DNA from: a virus
Taxonomy: Duplodnaviria; Heunggongvirae; Uroviricota; Caudoviricetes
Strand: one strand, 5' to 3'
IMG/VR virus record: IMGVR_UViG_2713896773_000011
Length of the DNA: 5,898 nt
A model generated the notes under the pieces. The model did no database searches. It was not told the origin of the DNA and saw only the letters and a list, made by a program, of their open reading frames with translations. Below are positions 1-5,898 of this stretch, piece by piece. The position numbers were made by a program, and so were the translations under genes. Numbering within the stretch: the first letter of the stretch is position 1; every line of letters begins with the position of its first letter.

Positions 1-4
1 AACC

Positions 5-556
5 GTGGGTAAGCATCACTGGAAAGTAGAAAAACAGCCTGAGTGGTACGTGAAAGCTGTCAGAAAAACTATCGCAGCGTTGCCGGGGGGTTACGCTGAA
101 GCTGCTGACTGGCTGGATGTAACAGAGAACGCATTATTTAACCGCCTTCGTGCCGATGGCGATCAGATTTTCCCGCTGGGATGGGCAATGATTTTGCAAC
201 GTGCTGGTGGAACTCACTTCATTGCTGACGCTGTGGCGCAGTCTGCAAATGGCGTCTTTGTGTCTCTTCCTGATGTCGAGGATGTGGACAACGCCGATAT
301 CAACCAACGCCTGCTGGAGGTCATTGAACAGATCGGCAGTTATTCAAAACAGATTCGTTCAGCAATTGAAGACGGTGTAGTGGAACCGCATGAGAAGACA
401 GCAATTAACGACGAGCTGTACCTCTCAATTTCGAAGCTGCAGGAGCATGCAGCACTGGTCTACAAAATTTTTTGCATTTCAGAAAGTAATGACGCCCGCG
501 AGTGTGCAGCTCCGGGCGCCGTGGCGTGTCGTGACTGTGGAGAAACTAACGCATGA
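5..556 (+). CDS. Phage early regulatory protein, CII-like / YmfL-like (tentative); 5' end may lie upstream of the window
   Basis: 183-codon ORF whose frame is open to the window edge; the first start shown is GTG at 5. Stop TGA 554-556 overlaps ATG 553 of the next gene (ATGA coupling). Family assignment is by recalled resemblance to prophage CII-type regulators and is not verified. Confidence 0.55.
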
Positions 557-891
557 ATAGTTTAACAACACACTACCGTCGCTCGCAACTGATTGCGCTT
601 CCTGTACCGGGTGGAAAAGCGAAGGTGGAGTATTGCTATGCAGTTAATGTACCAGGTGACAGGGAAATTGTAACCCACAGCTTTGCTGAGTGGGCTGTGG
701 GTGATTTCAACCGGCAGAAGGAGACAGTCCTTTGCGACAAGTTAACCGCTGGTTCAAAGATCACTACGGAGTGCCCGTCAGAGTCATTCGTTGGGAGCCG
801 GAAACACAACGGGTTATCTACCTCCGCGAAGGCTATGAGCATGAATGCTTCAGTCCGCTCGAACAGTTTCGTCGTAAATTCAGGGAAATAG
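553..891 (+). CDS. Small prophage protein of unknown function (112 aa), possibly YmfM-like
   Basis: ATG 553 overlaps the upstream stop. The ORF ends at TAG 889-891, directly followed by GAGG (891-894) and ATG 901 of the replication gene. Length and position match e14 ymfM by recall only. The C-terminal half is Ser-rich and an alternative frame is also open (see findings). Confidence 0.5.
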
Positions 892-900
892 AGGTCGGTC

Positions 901-1842
901 ATGAGCACTAAATTAACCGGCTATGTATGGGATGGTTGCGCAGCGTCAGGCATGAAATTATCCAGCGTGGCAATTATGGCACGCCTGGCTGATTTCAGTA
1001 ATGACGAAGGTGTGTGCTGGCCATCAATTGAAACCATTGCCCGCCAGATTGGCGCGGGGATGAGTACCGTCAGAACGGCTATCGCACGGCTGGAAGCAGA
1101 AGGCTGGTTAACGCGTAAGGCGCGTCGCCAGGGTAACCGCAATGCGTCGAATGTTTATCAGCTTAACGTTGCGAAGCTTCAGGCTGCGGCTTTTTCTCAA
1201 CTGTCAGATTCTGACCCGTCAAAATCTGACGCATCAAAATCTGACCCGTCAAAATTTGATGCGTCGAAATCTGGCAAAAAAGCGGGTTTTCACCCGTCAG
1301 AATCTGGCGGGGATCCGTCAGTAAAATCAAAACATGATCCGTCAGATAAAAAAACTTCTCGTCCGGACGCTTCGCAACCGGACACGCAGAAGGCTGAACA
1401 GGATTTTTTAACTCGCCATCCTGATGCGGTTGTATTCAGCCCTAAAAAGCGCCAGTGGGGGACGCAGGATGATTTGACCTGCGCACAGTGGCTCTGGAAA
1501 AAAATCATCGCCCTGTACGAGCATGCCGCCGAATGTGACGGCGAGGTGGTTCGTCCCAAAGAACCGAACTGGACAGCCTGGGCAAACGAAATTCGCCTGA
1601 TGTGTGTGCAGGATGGTCGTACTCATAAACAAATCTGCGAGATGTACAGCCGCGTCAGCCGCGATCCGTTCTGGTGCCGTAACGTGCTCAGCCCGTCGAA
1701 GCTGCGGGAAAAATGGGATGAGCTTTCCCTGCGCTTATCGCCGTCCGTCAGCACGTACACCGAAAAACGCGAAGACCCGTACTTCAAAGCCAGTTACGAC
1801 AACGTGGACTACAGCCAGATCCCGGCAGGATTCAGGGGGTGA
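901..1842 (+). CDS. Phage replication initiation protein (N-terminal winged-HTH DNA-binding domain, repeat-encoded linker, C-terminal DnaT/primosome-like domain)
   Basis: 313-aa ORF with GAGG 6 nt upstream of ATG 901. The N-terminus (SSVAIMARLADFSNDEGVCWPSIETIARQIGAGMSTVRTAIARLEAEGWL) is typical of HTH replication initiators. The central linker is encoded by tandem 15-bp repeats. The C-terminal region resembles phage replication/primosomal proteins. Confidence 0.85.
   Translation: MSTKLTGYVWDGCAASGMKLSSVAIMARLADFSNDEGVCWPSIETIARQIGAGMSTVRTAIARLEAEGWLTRKARRQGNRNASNVYQLNVAKLQAAAFSQLSDSDPSKSDASKSDPSKFDASKSGKKAGFHPSESGGDPSVKSKHDPSDKKTSRPDASQPDTQKAEQDFLTRHPDAVVFSPKKRQWGTQDDLTCAQWLWKKIIALYEHAAECDGEVVRPKEPNWTAWANEIRLMCVQDGRTHKQICEMYSRVSRDPFWCRNVLSPSKLREKWDELSLRLSPSVSTYTEKREDPYFKASYDNVDYSQIPAGFRG
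1201..1353. repeat. Iteron-like array of 15-bp direct repeats (consensus about CCGTCAAAATCTGAC) inside the replication gene; putative origin of replication
   Basis: Five contiguous in-phase 15-bp units at 1201-1215, 1216-1230, 1231-1245, 1246-1260 and 1261-1275, then degenerate copies starting at 1294, 1315 and 1339, followed by an A7 tract at 1347-1353. They encode DPSKS/DASKS pentapeptide repeats. The arrangement is analogous to lambda ori lying inside gene O. Confidence 0.6.
1834..1839 (+). promoter_or_regulatory. Shine-Dalgarno (AGGGGG) for the PerC-like gene
   Basis: AGGGGG ends 5 nt before ATG 1845. Confidence 0.5.
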
Positions 1843-1844
1843 TC

Positions 1845-2333
1845 ATGAGTCTGTTAAATGACGTTCAGAAATTCATTGAAGCCCATCCGGGGTGTACTTC
1901 CGGAGACATTGCGGATGCTTTTACAGGTTACTCACGGCAGCGCGTTCTGCAGTCAGCAAGCAAGTTACGTCAGAGTGGGCGTGTGGCTCACCGTTGTGAA
2001 GGGGATGCACGCAGACATTTCCCGCGCCAGACAAAGATATCGCCGGAGGCGGAACGGCAACCAGTTCGTGAAACCAGACCTGTGCGCAATTTCTATGTCG
2101 GCACTAACGACCCGCGGGTGATTTTGTGCCTGGCCCGCCAGGCGGAAGAACTGGAGTCCAGGGGCTTATTTCGTCGTGCTGCAACCGTGTGGATGGCGGC
2201 ATTCCGTGAAAGCCACTCCCAGCCAGAACGAAACAATTTTCTGGCACGTCGTGAGCGGTGCTTACGGAAAAGCAGCAAGCGCGCTGCATCGGGTGAAGAG
2301 TGGTATCTGTCAGGGAATTACGTGGGGGCTTAA
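1845..2333 (+). CDS. PerC-family-like transcriptional regulator with an N-terminal winged-helix-like region
   Basis: ORF with ATG 1845 preceded by AGGGGG; the six-frame track starts at GTG 1839. The C-terminal segment LESRGLFRRAATVWMAAF matches the recalled PerC/Pch hallmark (LE..GL.RRAA..W). The stop TAA 2331-2333 overlaps ATG 2333 of the next gene. Confidence 0.55.
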   Translation: MSLLNDVQKFIEAHPGCTSGDIADAFTGYSRQRVLQSASKLRQSGRVAHRCEGDARRHFPRQTKISPEAERQPVRETRPVRNFYVGTNDPRVILCLARQAEELESRGLFRRAATVWMAAFRESHSQPERNNFLARRERCLRKSSKRAASGEEWYLSGNYVGA

Positions 2334-2986
2334 TGAGTAATAAATATTGCCGGGCGCTGGTGGAACTGCGGAACAAACCAGCCCATGAACTGAAGGAAGT
2401 GGGCGATCAGTGGCGCACGCCGGACAACATTTTCTGGGGAATTAACACCCTGTTTGGCCCGTTTGTTCTGGATCTGTTCACTGATGGTGATAACGCTAAA
2501 TGTGCCGCTTATTACACTGCGGAAGACAACGCGCTGGCGCATGACTGGTCAGAACGTCTTGCGGAGCTTAAAGGTGCTGCCTTTGGTAATCCCCCATACA
2601 GCCGCGCCAGTCAGCATGAGGGGCAATACATCACCGGCATGCGTTACATCATGAAACATGCCAGTGCCATGCGTGATAAAGGCGGGCGCTATGTTTTCCT
2701 GATCAAAGCTGCCACCAGCGAAGTGTGGTGGCCGGAAGATGCAGACCATATTGCTTTTATTCGCGGGCGTATTGGTTTTGAACTGCCAGCCTGGTTTATC
2801 CCGAAGGACGAGAAGCAGGTGCCGACAGGAGCTTTCTTCGCTGGTGCTATTGCTGTTTTCGACAAGACCTGGAAGGGACCGGCAATCAGCTACATCGGGC
2901 GCGATGAACTTGAGGCATGTGGTGAGGCGTTTCTGGCGCAGGTTCGCCAGCAGGCGGAAAAACTGGTCAGGGAGATGGCGGCATGA
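2333..2986 (+). CDS. Phage orphan DNA N6-adenine methyltransferase (Dam family)
   Basis: The FGNPPYS motif (catalytic NPPY of N6-adenine methyltransferases) is present along with conserved phage-Dam-like blocks (WRTPDNIFWGINTLFGPFVLDLFTDGDN; RYVFLIKAATSEVWWPED). ATG 2333 overlaps the upstream stop in a TAATG arrangement. The track ORF begins earlier at GTG 2300, but ATG 2333 is the more likely start. Confidence 0.88.
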   Translation: MSNKYCRALVELRNKPAHELKEVGDQWRTPDNIFWGINTLFGPFVLDLFTDGDNAKCAAYYTAEDNALAHDWSERLAELKGAAFGNPPYSRASQHEGQYITGMRYIMKHASAMRDKGGRYVFLIKAATSEVWWPEDADHIAFIRGRIGFELPAWFIPKDEKQVPTGAFFAGAIAVFDKTWKGPAISYIGRDELEACGEAFLAQVRQQAEKLVREMAA

Positions 2987-3093
2987 CGACGTTAACTCAA
3001 TGCCAGCAGCAGGTGCTGGATATGCTGATTTCTTATCAGAAAGAGCGTGGCTTTCCGCCAACCAATCAGGAGGTGGCAACCATGCTGGGATAA
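2983..3093 (+). CDS. 36-aa mini-ORF resembling the N-terminal part of the LexA DNA-binding domain (helices 1-2 only)
   Basis: MTTLTQCQQQVLDMLISYQKERGFPPTNQEVATMLG aligns by eye with the LexA N-terminus ([34 protein letters not shown]) and stops before the recognition helix. ATG 2983 overlaps the Dam stop (ATGA). Confidence 0.4.
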   Translation: MTTLTQCQQQVLDMLISYQKERGFPPTNQEVATMLG

Positions 3094-3098
3094 CCAGC

Positions 3099-3422
3099 AT
3101 GCAAAACAGCAGATCGCACTGGGGTCACAGAGAACCCAGGAAGATATCAAAATGGCTGTTGCGGATGATGATTGTGCTTCACGTGCTGTGCCTGCTGCCG
3201 CTGCTGACCGGTTGCGGAAGTACGCGGACAGTTTACGTGAGCGTTCCGGTGGCACCACTGCCACCCAGCCTGACTTCTGATACTCCTGTACCGTTTATAC
3301 CTAATCCGCTGACGTATGGTGCCAGTCTGGAGCTGAATGTGAGTCTGTTGTCTGCGCTGGCTAACTGCAATCGGGATAAAGCTGATATTCGTAAAATAGA
3401 TGCAGAGAGAACTAACCATTAA
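3099..3422 (+). CDS. Lipoprotein (signal peptide with lipobox LLTG|C; Pro-rich mature region with a second Cys); function unknown, o-spanin-like or exclusion-type
   Basis: Frame open from 2739, but the plausible start is ATG 3099 (alternative ATG 3165). It has a positively charged n-region, a hydrophobic stretch (MMIVLHVLCLLPLLTGC), Gly at +2, a proline-rich segment (VPVAPLPPSLTSDTPVPFIPNP) and a downstream Cys. Confidence 0.6.
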   Translation: MQNSRSHWGHREPRKISKWLLRMMIVLHVLCLLPLLTGCGSTRTVYVSVPVAPLPPSLTSDTPVPFIPNPLTYGASLELNVSLLSALANCNRDKADIRKIDAERTNH

Positions 3423-3443
3423 GCAATAAAATTGTCAAATTAA

Positions 3444-4070
3444 TCAGTTGTCAAATGAATATACGTTAAAGGTATATGTCGACATAATTTCACCAAGTAC
3501 CTCAATACATACACTTTTTTTATGAAAATTACTGGGAAATGAACTTAGCTCCTCAAGACATTGCACATAAGTGCTGATATCACTTGCATCACGTTCAAGG
3601 AATTTCACTTGACCAAAAGAAGGAGTTTTAATCTTGGTTCTTTGCTGGATTATATGGATAAAGTGTGTAGTTGGTGAAACTATTACTCTTGAAATATCGG
3701 AAATGATGTCTTCTTGAACTTGCCGATAAAGTAAATCCTTTGGGTAATGGTGTTTAATCTCGATGGTTGCAACATTGCCATTATGTTCAGACGTTAATAT
3801 CGACTGGTTATAAAGTGATATGTCAACAGCGCCGATACCGAGTTTTGGATGCTCACTTAAAGCAGTTAGTGTGCTGATTTGATTGAGTATAACAACTAAC
3901 TCATCACGTATTTGTGTTTCATGTTTGCGATTGTAGAAGTAGCCATTCAGTTCATTTAACTTTTTATGCATCCTATCGTGACTAATTGCTTCGATCAGTA
4001 AATCCTGAATCATACTTTTCTCTAGGTAATCCGAACGGTTGTAAGTGACAGTATTGTGCTGGCATGTCAT
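3444..4070 (-). CDS. Hypothetical protein (208 aa) with a possible PD-(D/E)xK nuclease-like signature
   Basis: Long ORF in AT-rich DNA, second gene of a minus-strand pair. Candidate motif residues are D56/E57 (RDELVV), D83 (GIGAVDISL) and E104-I-K106 (ATIEIKHH). No good SD precedes ATG 4070; an internal ATG (Met20, about 4013) follows a purine-rich stretch. Confidence 0.6.
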   Translation of the reverse strand: MTCQHNTVTYNRSDYLEKSMIQDLLIEAISHDRMHKKLNELNGYFYNRKHETQIRDELVVILNQISTLTALSEHPKLGIGAVDISLYNQSILTSEHNGNVATIEIKHHYPKDLLYRQVQEDIISDISRVIVSPTTHFIHIIQQRTKIKTPSFGQVKFLERDASDISTYVQCLEELSSFPSNFHKKSVCIEVLGEIMSTYTFNVYSFDN

Positions 4071-4113
4071 TAATATGTAAAGGTATTGTGAATGCCAGAA
4101 AGATAACGAAGTA

Positions 4114-4449
4114 TCATCGATAGAAAAACTTTACAGCCCACTCGTAAACAGCTTTGTAAATCGGTTCATGGTAAATACTATCGATACTATTCAGATGTGC
4201 GATCATCGCCTCCACAGTTGTAGTGGTTGTTTCTAATATTTCGATTATTGCAGGGCGGTCATCATCTTCATCGAAGTATTCGAACAGCAGTACAGGTTTA
4301 CCATGCAATTCAGCATCTGAGACTCTAAGGTTACAACTACCGCTCAACTCAAAGTGAATTTTGTAATTACCTTCTACAGAATGGCCTACGGGGAAAAAGT
4401 ATAGGGTGTCATCTTTGTTCAAAAGCCATTCCCATTCATAACTATTCAT
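4114..4449 (-). CDS. Hypothetical small acidic protein (111 aa from ATG 4449; 117 aa if ATG 4467)
   Basis: First gene of the minus-strand pair. A strong SD (AGGAG, plus-strand coordinates 4457-4461) sits 7 nt upstream of ATG 4449. It contains an acidic run (FEYFDEDDDRP) and a Thr5 tract. I recognise no family. Confidence 0.6.
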   Translation of the reverse strand: MNSYEWEWLLNKDDTLYFFPVGHSVEGNYKIHFELSGSCNLRVSDAELHGKPVLLFEYFDEDDDRPAIIEILETTTTTVEAMIAHLNSIDSIYHEPIYKAVYEWAVKFFYR

Positions 4450-4456
4450 TTGTGAA

Positions 4457-4461
4457 CTCCT
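4457..4461 (-). promoter_or_regulatory. Shine-Dalgarno (AGGAG) for the small minus-strand gene
   Basis: Minus-strand sequence reads ATGAACAGGAGTTCACAAATG; AGGAG is 7 nt upstream of the second ATG. Confidence 0.6.
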
Positions 4462-4536
4462 GTTCATTGAGTTTCAACAACTATCAACTACATCCAGCGA
4501 AGCATAAAAGATCGTTTATGGCAAAACCGGAATGGA

Positions 4537-4974
4537 GTGCGATTCGATTCTGAGAAGGGTGCCACGTACCGACACTGGATGGGAACGGGGACTGTCGGTG
4601 TGATGATTGCCGGCAGTGACCTGATTAATCCCATTCCGGAAGAATCAACGGAAACGGCGGCAAGACAACATATCGGGCCACTGGCCCCGGTGGCAGGCTC
4701 TGATTTGTATGTATTCAGGCCGGTGGCGCATAAAGTGGATTTTCATATCCGTGTGACGCCGGACACACCGGAAATACGGGCTGCCATCACCGCCGAGTTG
4801 CGTTCGTTCCTGCTGCGTGATGGTTATCCGCAGGGAGAACTGAAGGTGTCACGTATCAGTGAAGCGATTTCCGGTGCGAACGGGGAATACAGCCATCAGT
4901 TGCTTGCACCGGCGGACAATATCTCCATTGCAAAAAATGAACTGGCGGTACTGGGGACGATTTCATGGACGTGA
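4537..4974 (+). pseudogene. Baseplate assembly protein J-like (P2 gpJ / Mu gp47 family), C-terminal fragment only
   Basis: About 145 codons ending ...AVLGTISWT, against roughly 300 aa expected for J-family proteins. The frame is open back to 4471 with no ATG and no SD, starting at the edge of the low-GC segment. It is followed by an I-like gene and a tail fiber gene in the canonical J-I-H order. Similar to the e14 jayE remnant by recall. Confidence 0.65.
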
Positions 4975-5549
4975 CAAACGATGATTACATCCGTCTGTTG
5001 TCGGCACTGTTGCCGCCCGGTCCGGCGTGGTCAGCCAGAGATCCGGCGATTGCCGGTGCGGCACCGTCATTAACCCGCGTTCATCAGCGTGCGGATGCCC
5101 TGATGCGGGAGCTGGATCCGCGCACCACTACTGAACTGATAAACCGCTGGGAGCGTCTGTGCGGTCTGCCGGATGAATGTATTCCCGCAGGGACACAGAC
5201 CCTTCGCCAGCGTCAGCAACGACTGGATGCGAAGGTTAACCTGGCGGGCGGCATCAATGAGGATTTTTACCTTGCACAGCTTGCTGCCCTGGGCAGACCA
5301 GACGCTACCATCACGCGATACGACAAAAGCACGTTCACCTGCTCATCTGCCTGTACTGACGCGGTGAATGCGCCGGAATGGCGGTATTACTGGCAGGTCA
5401 ACATGCCAGTCGCCACCAACACCACCTGGATGACATGTGGCGATCCCTGTGATTCCGCGCTGCGCTTCTGGGGGGACACCGTTGTCGAGTGTGTGCTTAA
5501 CAAACTCTGCCCGTCGCATACCTATGTGATTTTTAAATATCCGGAGTAA
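4965..5549 (+). CDS. Phage tail/baseplate protein I-like (YmfQ / DUF2313, Mu gp48-like)
   Basis: 194-aa ORF whose ATG 4965 overlaps the upstream gene end (ATGGACGTGA). The N-terminal LLPPGPAW motif and the position between the J-like gene and the tail fiber gene support the call. Confidence 0.8.
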
Positions 5550-5552
5550 TCC

Positions 5553-5898
5553 ATGCATCGTATAGACACGAAAACCGCGCAGAAGGATAAGTTCGGCGCG
5601 GGTAAGAACGGTTTTACCCGTGGTAACCCCCAGACTGGCACGCCTGCCACCGATCTGGATGATGACTACTTTGACATGTTGCAGGAGGAGCTTTGCAGCG
5701 TGGTGGAGGCATCCGGTGCCAGCCTGGAGAAGGGGCGGCACGATCAGTTGCTTACCGCACTTCGCGCGCTGCTGTTAAGCCGCAAGAATCCGTTTGGCGA
5801 TATCAAATCGGATGGCACGGTGAAAACGGCTCTCGAAAACCTTGGTTTGGGAGAAGCAGCTAAAAGGAATGTAGGTACAGGGGCGAATCAGATACCTG
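5553..5898 (+). CDS. Phage tail fiber protein, N-terminal part (3' end beyond window)
   Basis: ATG 5553 lies 3 nt after the upstream stop, with GGAG at 5541-5544. The N-terminus ([47 protein letters not shown]) resembles the conserved tail-fiber N-terminal domain. The ORF runs off the window. Confidence 0.75.

Follow-up and report, generated by a model that had tools for sequence, protein, structure and literature searches.

The 5' end of the baseplate J gene

How does a baseplate gene that has lost its beginning come to lie beside two low-GC genes, in a phage element with no head genes upstream? This question was raised by the 5,898-nucleotide stretch of tailed-phage DNA analysed here, referred to below as the window. 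The first-pass annotation had described a J-family gene truncated at its 5' end, lacking a start codon and ribosome-binding site and ending at 4974, and had supposed that cargo arrived within J. The feature in question was:

4564-4974, plus strand: 3' remnant of a baseplate J / Mu gp47-family gene, putative pseudogene (BLASTP, Pfam, PHROG)

An analysis of the reading frames revealed that 4468-4974 was exactly one stop-to-stop frame, from the TGA at 4468-4470 to the TGA at 4972-4974. In BLASTP, its translation matched the J protein of an intact prophage (L003), which has 352 aa, over residues 217-352 with 135 of 136 positions identical. A self-contained short protein belonging to another family was thereby ruled out. 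Pfam placed the fragment in Baseplate_J (PF04865; E 3.2e-11, score 43.5 bits, cutoff 21.1), with a match to profile positions 153-255 of 255 only, and PHROG assigned it to tail / baseplate wedge. The full-length parent J matched profile positions 2-255 (E 1e-52) and aligned end to end with Mu gp47, a protein of 360 aa (PDB 9ki1 chain H; E 4.6e-38). Homology to J began at 4564 in blastn, with the crossover at the TA of 4567-4568, and about the first 31-33 codons of the frame were without it. Position 4468, annotated as the start of the fragment, marked only an in-frame upstream stop codon. The alignment to full-length homologs that the first-pass annotation had proposed located the breakpoint at J codon 217 (nt 649). 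The surviving codons 217-352 and the stop amounted to about 39% of J, and the N-terminal 61% was missing; the earlier estimate of the “C-terminal half or so” named the correct end of the protein and overstated its share.

A J protein of this family has about 350-360 aa with N-terminal and central domains, of which only residues 217-352 were encoded here, and the fragment cannot be a complete wedge subunit because residues 1-216 are missing. It also lacked a start of its own and the gp45-gp46-gp47-gp48 operon position: the gp44/45/46-like genes were absent upstream, and the gp48-like ymfQ was the only baseplate gene after it. No Shine-Dalgarno sequence was found before the in-frame GTG 4537 or ATG 4579, in agreement with the description of a truncated gene without start or ribosome-binding site. 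The fragment is a piece of a Baseplate J / Mu gp47-family gene and most likely not a functional member of the family.

Two internal deletions in a collinear prophage

The missing part of J was traced by comparing the window with L003, an apparently complete prophage of about 40 kb that runs from int to pin at icd in E. coli 20AR0354. Its early region is ordered int, xis, repressor, ymfT, ymfL, O-like replication gene, yfdN and dam. These genes are followed by a LexA-like gene, rusA, kilA-N, a DUF968 gene and Q, and then by morons, holin, endolysin, the DUF2570 (Rz-like) gene and lysC. After lysC come two opposite-strand hypothetical genes, HNH, the small and large terminase subunits, portal, protease and capsid, and the element ends with connectors, sheath, tube, tape measure, baseplate genes, J, ymfQ, the tail fibre genes and pin. 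Pairwise blastn showed that the window consisted of three blocks of L003, in the same order and on the same strand, separated by two deletions whose boundaries were set by blastn and three-way alignments:

1-3092: block 1, L003 9898-12974, 96.5% identity
3091-3092: junction of deletion 1, about 7.0 kb lost (L003 12975-19997)
3088-4568: block 2, L003 19998-21478, 99.9% identity
4567-4568: junction of deletion 2, about 16.4 kb lost (L003 21479-37847)
4564 to about 5896: block 3, L003 37848-39180; the flanking blocks are 96-97% identical to L003
4450-4566, no strand: retained spacer from the low-GC cassette towards the deleted HNH gene, no difference from the left parent up to the TA in any of 10 intact loci

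The reconstruction from intact relatives that had been called for therefore yielded not one but two deletions. Deletion 1 began at codon 36 of the LexA-like gene and ended midway through the Rz-like gene. Lost with it were the rest of the LexA-like gene, RusA, KilA-N, DUF968, the antiterminator Q, morons, a DNA methyltransferase, the holin, the endolysin and, of the DUF2570 (Rz-like) gene, the 5' part. Deletion 2 began 32 nt before the HNH start codon (in L003) and reached J codon 217. Its losses were HNH, both terminase subunits, portal, protease, capsid, connectors, sheath, tube, tape measure, a DNA-circularisation protein, the baseplate gp44/45/46-like genes and J codons 1-216. The part of the J frame without homology to J is explained by the spacer, since 4468-4566 is intergenic and has its usual place upstream of the HNH endonuclease gene. 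Compared with intact SfV/SfII-type prophages, 23.4 kb were missing in total, comprising late regulation, holin and endolysin, packaging, head, tail and most of the baseplate. The absence of terminase, portal, capsid and tail tube genes between the retained blocks, as originally noted, was confirmed.

Three-way alignments with ten left-parent and several right-parent sequences showed that both junctions fell on an identical 2-nt microhomology, TA, with parent-specific bases on either side. The two parents at the junction of deletion 2 read ACGTATCG and ACATACCG (6/8). Junctions of this kind appear to be the signature of illegitimate deletion at the level of microhomology, and not of site-specific or homologous recombination.

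Megablast searches of 5,426 complete E. coli genomes with junction-spanning queries recovered neither of the two junctions, and exact-pattern scans of GTDB species representatives, JGI metagenome contigs and IMG/VR were likewise empty, so that the two deletions rest on one sequence. With the entire window as query, megablast against the same 5,426 genomes gave many partial matches and no record covering at least 80%. No exact-protein match was on record for the 145-aa, 117-aa and 77-aa junction reading frames. The 131-aa J product that starts at ATG 4579 had been called by automatic gene finders on three other contigs with different upstream contexts. In one, J was frameshifted and the tail module was complete in other respects, and another had a truncated or rearranged arrangement; in the third, non-J sequence met J about 49 nt upstream of the breakpoint in the window.

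The uniqueness of both junctions in every collection searched is what an assembly or scaffolding artefact would also produce, for example by a collapse between two related prophages of one genome that wrongly joined the three blocks. Related prophages often occur several times in an E. coli genome (median 2 places, maximum 10), and the middle block differed from its flanks in identity to L003. However, assemblers mis-join at long repeats, whereas these junctions share 2 nt only, and the order and orientation of the blocks were exactly those of the intact phage. Analogous double deletions have arisen independently in finished genomes (K-12 and H3). The flanks also have near-identical relatives of their own, which indicates ordinary phage mosaicism: the left block was closest to the thrW prophage of CH4790 (99.2%), the other flanking block had a relative at 99.6%, and the middle block was closest to icd-integrated prophages. 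An artefact is thus very unlikely.

Origin of the low-GC cassette

The genes next to the J fragment formed a low-GC cassette on the opposite strand:

3444-4449, minus strand: two-gene moron in the lysC/HNH slot, with 36.5% GC over 3423-4470
3444-4013, minus strand: predicted PD-(D/E)xK nuclease-like protein, 189 aa
4114-4449, minus strand: acidic protein, 111 aa

The drop in GC to about 36% directly beside the fragment, together with the strand of the cassette, would fit the view that foreign cargo was inserted into J, or replaced part of it, and so truncated the gene. This was contradicted by the position of the cassette in relatives. In an exact-protein look-up, it lay between lysC and the HNH/terminase genes in all 10 of the intact prophage contexts sampled, which had complete head modules, and there the cassette and its 119 nt of spacer were contiguous with both neighbours. 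Window positions 3091-4571 were contiguous in 74 complete E. coli genomes, with 99.6-99.9% identity among the matches listed, and in those phages J was intact about 16 kb away. The same slot holds other morons in other relatives. Because the cassette is resident in the lysC/HNH slot, the inference of an insertion or deletion that brought cargo into J was rejected, and its probability is next to nil; the junction is that of a plain 16.4-kb deletion starting 119 nt past the cassette. For annotation, the low-GC genes should accordingly be recorded as a native phage moron.

Six relatives (L009, L010, L013, L014, L015 and L017) carried different small cargo genes between the spanin and HNH/terminase genes, and this interval is therefore regarded as a variable moron slot. 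A 197-aa homologue of the nuclease-like protein, 67% identical, was present in Enterobacter and related genomes (L029-L032, 4001-4594). There, in another type of lambdoid phage, it again lay in the slot between the lysis and terminase genes and on the strand opposite to the late genes, but with another upstream gene (72-75 aa) in place of the 111-aa partner. Both cassette proteins were full-length members of PHROG families of unknown function, PADLOC and Pfam searches with them were empty, and the AlphaFold model of the 111-aa protein had a pLDDT of 53. The 189-aa gene looks like an uncharacterised nuclease-type moron and is a more promising lead than the J fragment.

Genes retained in the three blocks

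The early region of the window was an intact operon:

5-2986, plus strand: early-operon block, collinear with L003 9898-12974 (blastn)
5-556, plus strand: ymfL (relatives' annotation)
732-911, plus strand: DUF4222 gene (relatives' annotation)
901-1842, plus strand: O-like HTH replication gene (Pfam HTH_36)
1839-2333, plus strand: yfdN/PerC (relatives' annotation)
2333-2986, plus strand: phage Dam methyltransferase (Pfam)
2983-3093, plus strand: LexA-family gene stub of 36 codons (MTTLTQ...ATMLG*), 108 aa in full in relatives
3093-3422, plus strand: lysis-module remnant, 99.9% identical to L003 19998-20332
3165-3422, plus strand: intact embedded lysC (Rz1-like o-spanin), 85 aa, lipobox LLTGC (Pfam LysC, E 3.3e-18; PHROG Rz-like spanin)

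The replication gene had been called intact, and its exact 313-aa product was found in many intact prophages. The LexA-family stub ended at an out-of-frame TAA (3091-3093) that overlaps the junction and was made by deletion 1. Behind it, the C-terminal end of the DUF2570/Rz-like i-spanin gene was retained as far as 3280, in a different reading frame from that of the stub. Two earlier statements needed correction here: the early operon did not run directly into the cassette, because the junction at 3091-3092, the LexA stub, the Rz-like remnant and lysC intervene, and lysis genes were not wholly absent. Lysis requires both spanin subunits together with a holin and an endolysin. The lysis module would not be able to work, since it lacks the holin and the endolysin and, of the i-spanin, the N-terminal half.

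Downstream of the J fragment, the end of the late arm was retained:

4965-5549, plus strand: ymfQ (Mu gp48 / P2 gpI-like baseplate wedge), full length (Pfam Phage_Mu_Gp48, E 1.2e-26; ungapped blastn to L003 ymfQ)
5553-5898, plus strand, running off the window: 5' part of a tail-fibre gene (stfP / gp53-like; PHROG tail fibre, E 8.6e-55)

The start of ymfQ overlapped the stop of J, and its full length matched the description of an intact I-like gene at this position. Within the tail-fibre gene, 5842-5857 (TTGGTTTGGGAGAAGC) resembled a Pin crossover site, with 1 mismatch to TTGGTTTGGGAGAAGG and 0.01 such sites expected by chance. The reference is the inverted-repeat site at which Pin recombinases act in the e14 P segment (PMC12529663). 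An invertible tail-fibre switch probably continues past the end of the window.

Fate of the J fragment

Taken together, the results suggest that a temperate phage of the SfV/e14 type, whose early region is lambdoid, whose head is HK97-like and whose contractile tail is Mu-like, integrated and then underwent two internal deletions, probably by illegitimate recombination, each at a 2-nt TA. The first took the late antiterminator Q, and probably the adjoining late promoter region with it, and the second joined the final 136 codons of J to a non-coding spacer. The J fragment is very probably the 3' remnant left by the deletion of about 16.4 kb in the course of ordinary prophage decay.

In a scan of 2900-5100, shuffled controls contained more promoter-like and terminator-like sites than the sequence itself, and no useful site lay close to the fragment. 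As the fragment has no promoter or ribosome-binding site of its own, Q has been lost and the N-terminal 61% is missing, it is most likely a non-functional or untranslated pseudogene. The early operon might be read through lysC and the cassette into the fragment, as no terminator-like site was found between them. The remnant was free of frameshifts and stops. It differed from the L003 allele by 11 nt and 1 aa, and from the alleles in L005, L006 and L007, which lie in other contexts, by 1-2 nt and 0 aa. With no frameshifts or stops and 0-1 aa differences from alleles elsewhere, the deletion appears to be recent.

The same lack of decay might be read as a sign of domestication, in which the C-terminal domain of J (131 aa from ATG 4579 or 145 aa from GTG 4537) would be produced and act jointly with YmfQ and the invertible tail-fibre module, for instance to block phage adsorption. 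The remnant coincides with a stretch labelled Baseplate_J_C in precomputed Pfam, and in several cases an independent deletion ends within J or ymfQ and leaves the stf/tfa/pin arm in place. In K-12, products of the e14 P segment block adsorption of T2 (PMC12529663). However, that defence needs StfE2 only and not JayE, which is never mentioned in the study (PMC12529663). The fragment also has no ribosome-binding site or promoter, a recent deletion explains the lack of decay equally well, and the breakpoints differ (J nt 272, about 631 and 649, and one in ymfQ). Since no constant product is conserved among the relatives, the undecayed state was taken as evidence of recency rather than of selection, and domestication of the fragment is extremely improbable. 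The right-hand breakpoints of the independent deletions clustered in J, two of them 18 nt apart. It is at most a long shot that selection keeps a promoterless, translatable J C-terminal domain, YmfQ and the Pin-invertible module as an adsorption-blocking unit. Alternatively, J may contain a local deletion hotspot, or the nearness of the two breakpoints may be coincidence.

Decay by deletion thus remains the preferred account of the fragment. On its own, the finding carries little weight: it adds a further independent case in which an SfV/e14-type prophage decays through internal microhomology deletions while both arms are kept. The deletion allele was unseen elsewhere and the type of decay is already known. 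Annotators should flag the open reading frame at 4468-4974 (or 4579-4974) as a pseudogene fragment.

Comparison with e14 and other relatives

The early region (ymfL, the O-like gene and yfdN) and the end of the late arm (J, ymfQ and stf) were collinear with, and 96-99% identical in nucleotide sequence to, e14-type and SfII/SfIV-type elements, while Q and the genes for lysis (holin, endolysin), packaging (terminase, portal), capsid, sheath, tube and tape measure were missing. Comparison at this level supports the view of a degenerate, e14/SfV-type prophage without morphogenesis genes, as the first-pass annotation had proposed; the collinearity with an intact prophage of about 40 kb, interrupted by two internal deletions, gives this proposal its detail. 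Intact SfV/SfII-type prophages (20AR0354 at icd, CH4790 at thrW by proA, and Shigella SfII and SfIV) were collinear with the window at 96-99.9% nucleotide identity in every block, and the cassette had its native slot in them, as in block 2 of the window. Near-identical early regions and tail modules occurred in prophages with different integrases at different sites (L028 of CH4790 at thrW/proA; L003 at icd). The similarity of the modules to those of e14 therefore does not predict the integration site. In the strict sense, an e14 element is one that IntE has integrated into icd and that has mcrA/pinE at its right end; the window includes neither end of its element.

In relation to Mu gp47 and P2 gpJ, the fragment corresponded to the C-terminal part of the PF04865 profile. 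J-like DNA was found in 1,399 of the 5,426 complete E. coli genomes, and 1,077 of them retained at least 80% of the gene. About 287 of the 1,399 carriers had the truncation of K-12 and about 35 had other breakpoints; the breakpoint of the window was in none of them.

The likeness to e14 was borne out. K-12 jayE (b1152) is the same gene cut at another place (J nt 272 instead of nt 649), belongs to the same family with about 96% nucleotide identity over the common part, and is likewise truncated at its 5' end through an internal deletion of morphogenesis genes. It is followed by ymfQ, stfP, tfaP/tfaE, stfE and pinE. The K-12 deletions correspond to L003 11032-23073 (oweE'/'aaaE) and L003 24812-37470 (beeE'/'jayE). 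In e14, J nt 272-1059 is fused to a portal stub (beeE'), whereas in the window nt 649-1059 is fused to the spacer upstream of HNH. The replication gene of e14 is broken because the oweE'/'aaaE deletion joins it to the large terminase gene, whereas that of the window is intact. Unlike the window, e14 also has neither a lysC remnant nor the low-GC cassette.

Two further elements showed the same kind of decay. In GF31, the J remnant was annotated by PGAP as ‘baseplate J/gp47 family protein; incomplete; missing N-terminus’, but a single 23.8-kb deletion from kilA-N into J was responsible, in contrast to the two deletions of the window. The GF31 breakpoint (L001 15530-15550) lay in J just 18 nt upstream of that in the window (L003 37830 versus 37848). 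H3 carried two deletions, the second of which ended in ymfQ. The deletions of K-12 e14, GF31 and H3 differ from that of the window and arose independently in the same phage type.
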